From the IMG/VR virus record IMGVR_UViG_3300020577_012633, positions 59,216 to 123,215 of that record: a DNA stretch of 64,000 nucleotides; one strand, written 5' to 3'. Below are positions 11,477-54,107 of the stretch, one piece after another (position 1 is the stretch's first letter; each line of letters begins with the position of its first letter). Below the pieces are notes generated by a model. The model was given only the letters and a program-made list of their open reading frames with translations. It made no database searches and was not told the DNA's origin. Both the position numbers and the translations under genes were made by a program. This stretch comes from a virus (lineage: Duplodnaviria; Caudoviricetes).

Positions 11477-12040
11477 TTACTGGTTTCCGTACTTTTCTTT
11501 GAGACGAGCATATTCTTGTTTATCATGCTCTTCATTTAACAGTTTCATTCTTTCTTTTTCTTGCTGTTCTTCTTGTTTCTTTTTTTGCTCCTTTTCTAGT
11601 TTTTGTTTTTCCTCGTTTGCAAGCCTAATTGCTGTCGCATTTTTCTTTTTCTGGTTAACTATATTTAAGAGTTCTTCCCGATGTTCCCAGTCAGTCGGAG
11701 TATCTAGAGTTCCGTTTTCTCCGCTAATACAAAAATTTTCATCAGTGAAGCTATATTTTGAAATAATCAGGTGTGAATATTCGTATTCAGGATCATGTTC
11801 TTTGGTCCGAGACTTAGCGATGCTTTCTTCAAACTCGCTATAGTATTTGCATCTGTGAACTTCATCATAGAATTCTCTATCAAGTTTAACAATATGATTG
11901 GCGATATCTTCAAGAGAATTGAAAATTTCAGTTACCATATTGGCATCCTTGGAGTGCCGCCAATCGCACTCGCCTCTGAAATAACTTGCAAGTTCGCAGT
12001 TATTGATATGACTGATAACGATGACAGGAAAACTGTTCAT
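11477..12040 (-). CDS. Hypothetical protein (C-terminal coiled coil)
   Basis: 187-aa ORF. Confidence 0.55.
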   Translation of the reverse strand: MNSFPVIVISHINNCELASYFRGECDWRHSKDANMVTEIFNSLEDIANHIVKLDREFYDEVHRCKYYSEFEESIAKSRTKEHDPEYEYSHLIISKYSFTDENFCISGENGTLDTPTDWEHREELLNIVNQKKKNATAIRLANEEKQKLEKEQKKKQEEQQEKERMKLLNEEHDKQEYARLKEKYGNQ

Positions 12041-13206
12041 GATCTATTCTCCATATTTGATAAGTTCAAAAGTTGATATTTACGAAAAAGATTTCTCTTT
12101 TTAGAATCAGCAGGAATCGGTTCTGTGGCAATGGCAGTCACTTCGTAATCCTCACAATTATTGTTTATTGATGAAACAGTCGATACTACATTGTATGGAG
12201 GTTTATTATGACAAACATTACCGTTGGATCTTCCTTTGGGAAATGGAAAGTCATCTCTGTTGGGCATAGACCCGAAGGAAGCCTTTCTAGGGCCAAATAT
12301 TTTCTTTGTGAATGCCAATGTCCTGCTAAAACTAGAAGAATGGTTATAGGGCGTAGTCTTCGCGAGGGAACTAGCAAAAGTTGTGGATGCATTGGTCCAT
12401 CTCAAAATACTGGGAAAAATGAAATTAACAAAACGTATGGAAAATGGACGGTTCTTGATGAAGCTAAAAAACCTGTTCATATAACTGGAAGAGGTAAGTA
12501 TTTTTTGTGCGAATGTTCTTGTATTCATAAGACTAGAAGAATCATTTCTGGTCACGCACTCCGTAGCGGAGGATCTAATAATTGTGGCTGTAAATGGAGA
12601 TATTCGATTAGAAATGTAGACGCTCCATTTAATATGTTGCTTGGAAATTATATAAACAGCGCGAATAAAAGAAACAAGTCTTTTAACTTGTCTTTGGATG
12701 ACATTAAGCGTCTTTCGCAAGATATTTGTTTTTATTGCGGACAACAACCAATGGCAACTTTGAAGCCATTTGGCAAGCATAATTTTGTTTATAATGGTAT
12801 TGACAGGATAGACAATTCTCTTGGATATACCATTAAAAATTGTGTTTCTTGTTGCAAGAACTGCAATACCGCAAAACTTGACATGAACGTTGACCAGTTT
12901 AAGAATTGGATTACATCGGTCTACCTGAGACTTTGTAAGTGAATTCGAATTTCTTGGTCTATCAGGTTCTTGAAACTTGGCGACCTGAATGCCATAATAT
13001 TGGAGACGATCGTGAGCTTTCAAAAGCTCGCTTTCGTTCTTTACGCCAATAAGAACAAGATGAGGATGTTCTTGGTTCTAACCAGGAGCAAAAGCTCTGA
13101 TTGCCTCAATCACAGCGTGTGCGCTTTGAACAGCGATCTGCGACTGCGAGAGGTCTTCTCTAACGAGAACGTACATGTAAACAGTTTGTGATTGTACCTA
13201 CGTCAT
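12037..13206 (-). CDS. Pth2-like (peptidyl-tRNA hydrolase II-like) gene with two in-frame TAG and an 807-bp in-frame insertion; recoded gene or pseudogene
   Basis: Manual translation MT*VQSQTVYMYVLVREDLSQSQIAVQSAHAVIEA..G*NQEHPHLVLIGV..FQEPDR[insert]DYEVTAIATEP; AGGAG RBS and promoter upstream. Confidence 0.7.
12208..12942 (+). CDS. HNH-type homing endonuclease inserted antisense in the Pth2-like gene
   Basis: Two CECxC..SCGC repeats, CFYCG, GIDRIDN..GY..NCVSCCKNCN..K. Confidence 0.85.
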   Translation: MTNITVGSSFGKWKVISVGHRPEGSLSRAKYFLCECQCPAKTRRMVIGRSLREGTSKSCGCIGPSQNTGKNEINKTYGKWTVLDEAKKPVHITGRGKYFLCECSCIHKTRRIISGHALRSGGSNNCGCKWRYSIRNVDAPFNMLLGNYINSANKRNKSFNLSLDDIKRLSQDICFYCGQQPMATLKPFGKHNFVYNGIDRIDNSLGYTIKNCVSCCKNCNTAKLDMNVDQFKNWITSVYLRLCK

Positions 13207-15144: not shown

Positions 15145-15158
15145 TTTAACCTTTCAAA

Positions 15159-15233
15159 TGCCCTCGGCGGGACTCGAACCCACAACTCTCAGAATTTTAG
15201 AGATTCCGGTTCTGCCAATTGAACTACGAGAGC
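15159..15233 (-). tRNA. Amber suppressor tRNA (CTA)
   Basis: Full cloverleaf; anticodon arm GGAAT-CTCTAAA-ATTCT. Confidence 0.88.
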
Positions 15234-16617
15234 AATATCAGTCACCTTCAAACGAAAGAGAAAAAGGCTTTCTCCACATTCCGTAATTGTTCTTAATTTT
15301 CATACCATCAATAACTTCCTGGGGAGGAGAATTTGGAATGATAGTACACTGGTCTTCATGAACATTGAAGTCTCTATCTCCTTCGGCAGTTTTCGGGTCC
15401 ATGACCTTGTAAATAGCGCCAAACCAGGAGAAAGCAAACTTACCGTCATCACACTTCCACCAGCCAATATCTCCAATTGCATCACGATTCTTGCGAATCC
15501 TTCGCATAAGAGAAAGCGCCTCTTTAGAAACTTTAACCATTTCCTTAGAGTTTATAACAACGCATCCAAGGTTATCGTTCCCAGTAGGAAAGAAACCTTT
15601 GTTCTTCTTATGAGAAGAAGGACAAAAGACAATCTTGCCATCAATAGCAAAAATATTTACAGTAAATGGATTTGCCTTTTTTGTTGGTTTTTTGGTTTTT
15701 GTTTTACTGGTTAGAATTTTTGAACCAACATTTTTATTTTTTACTGTCATATTCTTATTTCCCGTACCAAGCCGCGATTGGTTTAATAATAGCAAAAGCT
15801 GACCAACAATGATAAACATAGCCAAAATCGTGACAATTCATTCTAAAACCTTTACCAATCGTCCCGTCAAAATCTTTAATTTCTTTTTCCCAATTATTAT
15901 CTAGATCAAAGTCATTCAAGTTTGCATTTTTCAACCATGCAATTACAAAATCTTTCCAGTCGATATCAAAAGTTTTTACTTCTATTTTTCTGGCTTCAGA
16001 ATTAATCGTAAAATATTGGTCTTTTGGGTCAGTCCAAAAAAGAACAAGACCTTTTCTTGGTACAATAGTATAATGAGAGGCTCCTTTAGGACAAAGAGCA
16101 GACAAATAATCAAGACACGCATTTAGTGTCTTATAATCGCCTCTAATATCGAATAATATGTTATTCATTTTATTCTGGATCTTTTTCAATAGCGACAGAA
16201 TGACCTGCTAATCCAAAGAAAACAACATCCGCAATTGAAAGCATGAACTCTCTATGTGGAGTCCTCTTAAACTCATGCAGGAATACTTCGCAATTTTCAG
16301 CCTGAACGGCAGCTTGTTCCAGCCTAGCTTTGATCTTTTCAATTTGACCGCTATTTATGGCGATAGAACGATCAGCAAGAAGCTGTGTCATCTTGCTTCT
16401 AAAATATTCTTCTTGCTCTTTGTAAAAGGAAACTTTTTTAGTAGCAGCCTCTATCAGCAAAGAACCTGGATATGTAAATTTCCATGTTTCCCGATTTCTG
16501 TCTTTGAATTCACTGTACATTTTAAATTCCTTTTTGAAGTTTTTCTTACTCTAAATTCGCCTTGAAAAGTCTAGGGCCAATTTTGTTGATGGAGGCAATC
16601 TCAATAACCAGTCTGTA

Positions 16618-52720: not shown

Positions 52721-52744
52721 AAAAAGGAGGGATAAAACCCTCCT
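52721..52744 (-). terminator. Intrinsic terminator after the RF gene
   Basis: AGGAGGG/CCCTCCT hairpin followed by TTTT. Confidence 0.7.
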
Positions 52745-52749
52745 ACTAT

Positions 52750-53500
52750 TTACTTCAATATGATATCAAGATTTCCCTTTATAACATCTTTGATATCATA
52801 TGTTTTCTTGCCTGTCAAATGATCAGAAACATAGCCCTTATAGAAACAATAAGTTCTTCTAGCTCCGCCTCTTCCTGTATTGCTGAGAATGTTTTTACGC
52901 TTTTCAGCATAATCCTTATTTTGTTCAGCAAACTTCATTTCTTGAATACGTCCGCACAGAAGCTCATAAGCATGAGCTTTATTCTGCTGAGGAGAACGAT
53001 GAACCTGAGACTTAACAAAGATTCCTGTTGGAATATGTTTCATTCTACATGCACTCTTGCATGTATTAACTCCTTGACCACCTGGTCCTGAAGCATTTTG
53101 AAACATAATCTCAATGTCTTCGTCTCTAATAATCGCTCCTTTGAAAGCAAATATTGGCAAGATTCCAACTGTTACAGTTGAAGTATGACGACGACCGCTT
53201 CTTTCGGAAGGAGGACATCTTTGAACAACATGCTTGCCTGATTCATTTTCAAAAGCAGATAATACATTTTTACCGCTTATTTCAAGAGTAGAAGAACCGT
53301 AATCAACATCAACAATCGAAATGGTTAGGTTCTTCTTTGTTGCGTATCTAACATATATTTCGGAGAGTTCGTGAACAAAGTTTTTAGCATCTTCTCCACC
53401 CTCTCCTGCTCTTATTTCAATAAGAATAGAAGAAGGGTCAAAGAGACTCCTGTGCCTTATGCTGAAGGCCATCGTTCCAGCGATTTCTGTTACTATTCAT
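52750..53500 (-). CDS. Class I peptide release factor homolog (lacks domain 1) with a predicted +1 programmed frameshift
   Basis: EIRAGEGG, GRRHTS, GPGGQ; AGGAG-TCT-CTT-TGA-C at 53451-53437 in frame with ATG 53500. Confidence 0.85.
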
Positions 53501-54107
53501 AGCAAAACCCTTTCAATTAAAAGTCCACTGGCTTCTTGCAAAAATAACAAGACTACGGTTCGCTTGCCGCTGCGCTACATCGTTGTTTTCATATTGAAAA
53601 CATTAGGTTCTTTAATTGGATGAATGCTGGCGACATCCCCACTCCACTGAACTGTTCCAATACAAAATAAATGGAACTTAGGCTCTCCATTAACTTCTTT
53701 TTCTACTGTCCTGGCTTTTGCATGTATATGAACTTCAGAAGCTAAATGCTCAATATCATTTATGACAACTCTCCATTTGCGACCTTCTGGATCATTTTGC
53801 CATTTGGTATTGAATCTCAAAAGTATATTATCATATTCTATCATGGTAATTCATTTTTTGCTTCTACTTCAATTTCTCTTGAAGAATAACATTCTGATAT
53901 TAATCGAAAATGTTGTATTTTTGGGCCACCAAGACCTTCATATGTTGCAATACGCAGTCCTTTAGTATTATATCCACGAGGAATTCTACAAACAACATTA
54001 TCTTTTGGACCAAAAGGATCTGAATCTTTTTCTATAGACCAACAAAAATCTCCAGCTAAAAGAAGTATTCCATCTTTTGTTATAGGAAGAGACTTTTTCA
54101 TAGTAAA

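Follow-up and report, generated by a model that had tools for sequence, protein, structure and literature searches.

The prfB frameshift of bacteria is a textbook example of autoregulatory recoding. A gene on the minus strand of the DNA analyzed here, from a huge freshwater phage (the window, i.e., the whole 64-kb stretch under study, taken from a 123-kb IMG/VR record with an estimated completeness of 24%), raises the question of whether a phage may express a release factor of its own through the same device and, if so, what that device would respond to. The listed open reading frame (ORF) for the gene comprises only 240 aa, from an in-frame ATG at 53472. Read directly, the sequence contains a frameshift cassette, AGGAG-TCT-CTT-TGA-C, which closes a 20-codon frame opened by ATG 53500. 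After the shift site, the +1 frame reads DPSSILIEIRAGEGG... and remains open until TAA 52752-52750, a frameshifted form that the ORF list misses.

A prfB-like cassette at the head of the gene

The elements of the cassette and its surroundings are as follows:

53438..53500, minus strand: leader ORF in frame 0, with ATG 53500-53498, 20 codons (MNSNRNRWNDGLQHKAQESL) and stop TGA 53440-53438
53447..53452, minus strand: internal Shine-Dalgarno (SD)-like CAGGAG, 3 nt 5' of CTT; AGGAG itself is 53451-53447
53446-53444, minus strand: spacer TCT between AGGAG and CTT
53437..53443, minus strand: shift site CTT TGA C (CTT 53443-53441, TGA 53440-53438, C 53437)
52750..53439, minus strand: body in the +1 frame, 229 codons plus TAA 52752-52750, with release-factor domains 2, 3 and 4
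53470..53472, minus strand: body-frame ATG, present only in the window, which would give a 240-aa product and is a possible leaky bypass start
52725..52744, minus strand: terminator-like GC-rich hairpin plus T run, directly after the stop codon

The hairpin was flagged on the plus strand in the hairpin scan; the minus-strand T run was read directly from the sequence.

This arrangement corresponds to that of prfB cassettes in each of its parts. The short ORF0 ends at a stop right after CUU (YUU), with C as the next base; the SD-like element lies 3 nt 5' of the shift codon, at the spacing found in five bacterial prfB genes; and the main ORF lies in the +1 frame without a conserved start of its own, behind a site that is kept in homologs. 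The shift site falls exactly at the domain-2 boundary of the release-factor gene. A UGA followed by C terminates weakly. SD sequences are in use among the phage's own genes (38%, vs 9% background), which makes a shift stimulated by an SD plausible in the host. Re-initiation at the TTG within CTTTGAC was dropped as a start of the body, as this TTG falls in the third frame and not in the body frame.

In the proposed mechanism, ribosomes would initiate at ATG 53500 and translate 20 codons, so that CUU would occupy the P site and UGA-C the A site, with AGGAG, three bases 5', pairing with 16S rRNA. Peptidyl-tRNA-Leu would then slip from CUU to UUU, and reading would go on at GAC in the +1 frame, yielding a product of ~249 aa composed of the leader and domains 2-4. 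The leader-body junction peptide predicted after the shift is AQESLDPSSILIEIR; a start at ATG 53472 would give an N-terminus of MAFSIRHR.... The first-pass annotation had proposed such a gate, with 20 codons, an internal SD, a 3-nt spacer and CTT-TGA-C, and the sequence indeed reads so, with the same elements kept in relatives. From these features, we consider it very likely that the gate is real and that the gene encodes an RF1-type class-I factor of huge phages, lacking domain 1, through a prfB-like programmed +1 frameshift.

Conservation and variety of the gates

For close comparison, six IMG/VR relatives (L001-L006) with 81-83% protein identity were used, one of them from a 494-kb contig. 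The leader ATG and CAGGAGTnnCTTTGACCC are invariant in all six, and the aligned cassette, CAGGAG-T-nn-CTT-TGA-CCC, is unchanged but for two spacer bases. A wider set of 52 loci, on contigs of up to 572 kb, was obtained by a profile scan of IMG/VR. At ~39 of the 52, a CTT directly before TGA, TAG or TAA occurs in the frame that trails the body by one base, and none of these ~39 loci has a body-frame ATG. In most loci, the shift site lies 37 or 40 nt 5' of the GxGG motif, and gated relatives reach down to ~31% identity. The conservation of CTTTGAC in homologs, proposed earlier as a check on the gate, is thus borne out by the close relatives and, as CTT-stop, by most of the family.

Among 36 unique sites, the gate stop is TGA in 23, TAG in 10 and TAA in 3; the base after it is C in 25 of the 36, and an SD-like run at prfB spacing is present at 24. 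In these sites, which were collected by searching for CTT and then a stop, Phe is encoded by TTT and is preceded in the body frame by any of several residues (V, G, L, C, R, H, F), whose codon ends in C. That the residue changes while the third base of its codon does not is indicative of a constraint at the nucleotide level.

Seven lineages carry tandem gates, i.e., a pair of sites in successive frames with a separate SD for each, so that two +1 shifts would be needed:

L016 and L054: TAG/TAG
L018 and L028: TGA/TGA
L027: TAA/TGA
L033: TAA/TAG
L035/L036: TAG/TGA

The tandem sites lie ~40-140 nt 5' of GxGG, and in these loci an ATG is present in the outermost frame and in no other. The distance from one site to the other is 1 mod 3 in every case, as would follow from duplication of a cassette.

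Most loci that at first seemed ungated hold another gate, of one of the following kinds:

in-frame TGA at the Trp of K-G-W
in-frame TAG or TGA near the start
GTT-TGA
CTT-TAG inside domain 2

For example, L017 has GTT-TGA in place of CTT-stop. In L041, L044, L052 and L055, which lack a frameshift site, an in-frame TGA replaces the conserved Trp of K-G-W, ~26 codons after GEGG; this placement suggests a read-through gate. L019 and L021, likewise without a frameshift site, show an in-frame TGA near the start. No tRNA-UCA was found in G031, the one nearly whole record of this group with in-frame TGA. Only L022 and L030 are plainly ungated in appearance.

Affinity of the encoded factor

The protein encoded by the body matches the Pfam PCRF profile only over positions 97-194 of 194; positions 1-96, which correspond to domain 1, are absent. 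The RF-1 domain (PF00472, 87 bits) follows and contains the GGQ motif. The two functional motifs are located as follows:

53074..53082, minus strand: catalytic GGQ (G131, G132, Q133), invariant in alignment A2
53206..53214, minus strand: PPS, the tripeptide for codon recognition, where RF1 has PxT and RF2 has SPF, as aligned to Thermus thermophilus RF1

The first-pass description of a factor without domain 1, with GGQ intact (53082-53074) and with a PPS loop resembling RF1 rather than the SPF of RF2, agrees with these results.

Scores against NCBIfam models are 206 bits for RF1, 161 for RF2, 71 for PrfH and 34 for ArfB, all under the equivalog cut-offs; for RF1, the scores and cut-offs are 206 vs 400 bits and 202 vs 423. 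Without an N-terminal domain 1 and with a score under the cut-off, the phage factor does not have the four-domain architecture of RF1 (PrfA). Sequence comparison with the PDB ranks RF1 (150 bits) above RF2 (117). An AlphaFold2 (AF2) model built from a 17-sequence alignment reaches pLDDT 85.7 and is disordered at the N-terminus; its best superposition is the one on ribosome-bound RF1 (TM 0.82, rmsd 2.7 Å over 232 residues).

The hallmarks of RF1 are Q181, the third-base reader, and PxT, and the tripeptide of RF2 is SPF. The decoding loop of the window protein, Q-R-C-P-P-S-E-R-S-G-R-R-H-T-S, keeps Q181 and P-x-T/S in the form Q..PPS (T to S), and SPF is absent. Tripeptides in relatives include PPT, PES, PDT, PET, PKT, PPN and PKN, i.e., PxT in most and PxN in some. 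Two other decoding positions are altered: at the tip of alpha5, an Asp is invariant in alignment A2 where RF1 has E119 (RF2 also has glutamate there), and Arg stands in place of RF1 I192 in most members, including the window protein. Given these two changes, the specificity of the factor may differ from that of RF1.

A tree was built from 40 phage factors, 36 bacterial RF1 and 7 RF2. It separates RF2, at 99 SH-aLRT, from a group of bacterial RF1 and the phage clade, in which the phage factors (support 94) are sister to the bacterial RF1 clade (85), not to RF2. The factor therefore differs from RF2 (PrfB) both in its PPS tripeptide and in its placement outside the RF2 clade. ArfB and ICT1 do not fit either, as domains 2 and 4 are present and the ArfB model matches residues 114-146 only. 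On account of the HMM scores, the RF1-type loop, the structural match and the tree placement, the protein is assigned on sequence grounds as a domain-1-less, RF1-derived class-I release factor. When GTDB genomes were scanned for cellular members of this short family, the best 80 matches were canonical full-length prfA and one short Patescibacteria call.

What the gate may respond to

Host RF2 reads UGA. Termination at the UGA of the gate by host RF2 would compete with slippage, and the output of the gene would thus be expected to rise when RF2-dependent termination is slow. Domain 1 is the part of a class-I factor that contacts RF3 and the L11 stalk. Even without it, a factor with GGQ and RF1-type decoding elements would be expected to act in peptide release at UAA and UAG, thereby raising the capacity for termination at these two codons and possibly leaving more RF2 free for UGA. 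By this reasoning, the factor should not be able to read the stop that gates it in the window. The gated gene is RF1-type by HMM, tree and loop, which would set it apart from RF2-type autoregulation. With such a product, a UGA gate would not be simple autoregulation as in prfB, so it would amount to cross-regulation, unless the specificity of the factor has broadened. Generalized to the family, this gives a dedicated, RF1-derived terminator of huge phages, lacking domain 1, whose synthesis would be wired to current termination capacity by one or two prfB-like gates (UGA, UAG or UAA), with an RF1-type factor under an RF2 codon in the present case. We advance this reading tentatively, giving it somewhat less than an even chance. 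The earlier suggestion, a backup factor produced upon failure of host termination, agrees with how the gate should work and is only partly supported; being RF1-type by sequence, the factor would not replace RF2 at UGA, its gating codon.

The main rival to cross-regulation is true autoregulation, in which a factor with broadened or altered specificity would read UGA, or all three stops, and thereby exert negative feedback as in prfB. The distribution of gate codons speaks for it. All three stops occur among the 36 unique sites, and across the family the decoding loop shows no co-variation with the gate codon, which flips on very short tree branches. For example, the near-identical proteins of L023 and L026 (branch lengths 0.012 and 0) have gates one base apart (TAG and TAA), and their sister L020 has TGA. 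The family's changes at decoding positions (Asp for E119, Arg for I192) would also be in keeping with an altered specificity, and tandem gates would sharpen a feedback. Against this stand the retention of Q181 and PxT/S, the absence of SPF and the grouping of the family with RF1 in the tree, apart from RF2, and we regard autoregulation as rather unlikely.

Whether the gate codon follows the genetic code or the termination signals of the phage was addressed with 14 phage records that carry family members, six of them 96-100% complete and the rest fragments. ORF tiling gave about 89-96% coding in code 11, and dropping any one stop produced no outlying gain. The idea that the gate codon is a recoded codon was therefore dropped, none of the 14 records being wholesale recoded. 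A tie to phage suppressor tRNAs was likewise dropped, as a tRNA-CUA occurs together with TGA gates (G000, G001) and with TAG gates (G025, G005, G017). Between gate codon and terminator usage, the ranges in the 14 records overlap, with no clear link. In-frame stops in TerL, sought as a further indicator of the genetic code, were absent and hence uninformative.

The following two features of the window were noted:

15158-15234, minus strand: amber suppressor tRNA, anticodon CUA, in a record otherwise in the standard code
12037-13206, minus strand: Pth2-like peptidyl-tRNA hydrolase gene with in-frame TAGs at 13200-13198 and 13080-13078

TAG recoding of the window was rejected, the fragment being compatible with code 11. 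The Pth2-like gene is the only positive case of an in-frame TAG in coding sequence; its second TAG lies within the Pfam PTH2 match (26.9 bits, cut-off 23). In a pair of ORFs of 355 and 302 aa joined by TAG, no domain spans the TAG. The Pth2-like frame consists of ~100 residues, then ~280 unrelated residues, then a Pth2-like C-terminal piece, an order that suggests the unrelated stretch to be an insertion. The 494-kb relative (G001) has exactly one tRNA-CUA among its 71 tRNAs.

Genome context

The release-factor gene sits inside an array of 21 tRNAs, with a tRNA-Ala 30 nt after the terminator-like hairpin, and its relatives are embedded among tRNAs likewise. Directly 5' of the leader, relatives carry a tRNA-like gene of 104-126 nt with an insert of 30-55 nt (Rfam tRNA, 35-42 bits). 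The elements upstream of the leader are as follows:

53497..53580, minus strand, window: end of the upstream ORF, read-through extension and tRNA-like remnant; TAG 53577-53575 and then 25 codons to a TGA overlapping the ATG
L001:2828-2931 and L003:2792-2917: tRNA-like gene of the relatives

In the window, 53552-53580 is a degenerate 5' remnant of this tRNA-like gene, fused to the end of ORF 53575-53844; the remnant itself gives no Rfam match in the window. The first-pass annotation had raised the prospect of read-through of the upstream TAG. The 25 codons that run from it to the TGA overlapping the leader ATG are present as described; the read-through coupling is not conserved, because in relatives the tRNA-like gene occupies the site and the window's TAG lies in its degenerate remnant.

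A full-length RtcB RNA ligase is encoded by the phage (G000:C1:1932-3062, outside the window) and by its 494-kb relative (G001:C1:268053-269180). PrfH (RF-H) is a domain-1-less release-factor homolog paired with RtcB2. The possession of RtcB, Ro60 and a Pth2-like protein by a phage whose release factor lacks domain 1, as PrfH does, lends some appeal to the view that the factor serves rescue like PrfH or ArfB, i.e., release from stalled or damaged ribosomes independently of stop codons. Like PrfH, the phage factor keeps GGQ. It falls far below the PrfH cut-off, however (71 bits vs 167, with RF1 at 206), and an RF1-type decoding loop is kept throughout the family. RtcB lies >100 kb from the release-factor gene in both G000 and G001, with no adjacent copy and no shared operon, and the ArfB match is limited to the GGQ region. 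A rescue function thus appears improbable, and a factor acting at stop codons remains the preferred reading.

The in-window start codon and the integrity of the gene

Could the gene be an ordinary one, started at ATG 53472, with SD-CTT-TGA-C as a coincidence or the end of a short upstream ORF and without any frameshift? In the window, ATG 53472 opens an uninterrupted 240-aa ORF in frame, so that this sequence alone could make the product without a shift. Chance alone might also be invoked for the site: the 13-mer GGAGNNNCTTTGA occurs once in the 64-kb window vs 0.12 expected, a single copy that is weak on its own and draws its weight from placement and conservation, not from count. The relatives speak against this explanation. 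All six carry AAG at the position of ATG 53472, and none has an ATG, GTG or TTG in the body frame 5' of the site, so the relatives have no canonical body-frame start. The cassette is invariant while its flanks vary, and the same device recurs at about three-quarters of the family loci (~39/52), far beyond the close relatives. In the window itself, no good SD precedes ATG 53472. The combination that had been named as evidence against a gate, a start at ATG 53472 together with an unconserved slippery site, is the reverse of what is found: the site is conserved and the ATG is not. An ordinary gene is accordingly very improbable, and the frameshift gate is retained.

The body is under strong purifying selection. 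Among four distinct sequences, differences in the body number 588 at third codon positions vs 161 and 87 at positions 1 and 2; for the leader, read in frame 0, they number 33 vs 19 and 18. MSKxKNQW-type leaders recur across the family. Metagenome contigs from two studies, one of them riverine, are identical through the site with 0 indels. A diverged variant contig from the same run shows ~20 differences just downstream, mostly in threes, and leaves the cassette untouched. Since independent contigs of two studies agree without indels, the shift site is not an assembly error. A pseudogene or sequencing artefact, i.e., a frameshift mutation or assembly indel in a decaying release-factor gene, might be suspected from the way gene callers split or truncate family genes, with database entries beginning at ~residue 17, but is effectively refuted by the agreement of contigs, the selection on the body and the conservation of the shift site at one position in dozens of divergent phages.

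Comparison with known systems

Bacterial prfB and the phage gene share SD-N3-CUU-UGA-C, a short leader ORF, a startless +1 body and a class-I release factor as product. In the bacterial prfB genes examined, AGGGGG or AGGAGG stands three bases 5' of CTT TGA C, and some match the phage almost letter for letter: the phage has AGGAG TCT CTT TGA C, and contigs of Enterococcus and Listeria have AGGAGG TCT CTT TGA C and AGGGGG TCT CTT TGA C, respectively. The two differ in placement. In bacterial prfB, the site lies 97 residues 5' of domain 2, those 97 residues being domain 1, whereas in the phage it lies directly before domain 2 because domain 1 is missing. Unlike prfB, moreover, the phage gene is RF1-type, and its family also uses TAG, TAA and tandem double sites. 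A 2025 survey of >12,000 bacterial genomes found the prfB frameshift confined to RF2, with TGA in 98.6% of 8,164 motifs, TAA in the remainder and TAG never, and detected no programmed frameshift in prfA (PMC12421855).

With bacterial RF1 (PrfA), the phage factor shares domains 2-4 and GGQ, with a loop resembling Q181..PxT, and RF1 supplies its best HMM, PDB-sequence and structural matches. It departs from RF1 in the missing domain 1, the score of 206 vs 400 bits, PPS, the alpha5-tip Asp, Arg for I192 and expression by frameshift.

Release factors have also been reported from recoded phages, namely RF2 in Lak and RF1 in Jade phages (Devoto 2019, Borges 2021), where a frameshift is not mentioned. 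As here, these are phage class-I factors encoded near tRNAs, and an amber suppressor tRNA is also present in the phage described here; unlike recoded phages, the 14 records with family members reach about 89-96% coding under the standard code. The factors of Lak-A1 and Lak-B4 (Prevotella phages; L060, L062) are full-length RF2 with domain 1, an SPY loop for SPF and an insertion after GGQ. No frameshift site was found in them, unlike most bacterial prfB genes. The phage factor is therefore not the canonical Lak factor, which is a full-length unshifted RF2. In the literature searched, no description was found of a frameshift in phage release factors or prfA. The frameshift device was found described only for bacterial RF2; here, it is carried by an RF1-type phage factor. 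Cross-regulation between two termination pathways, likewise, was not found described for cells.

Implications

Phage release factors of this kind are routinely mis-annotated as N-terminally truncated ORFs. A single protein family with all three stop gates, sometimes in series, offers natural variants for testing what such gates sense. If cross-regulation holds, the phage would top up UAA/UAG termination when host RF2 is limiting during infection. These findings suggest that huge phages may monitor and adjust the termination capacity of the host cell, independently of genetic-code switching.
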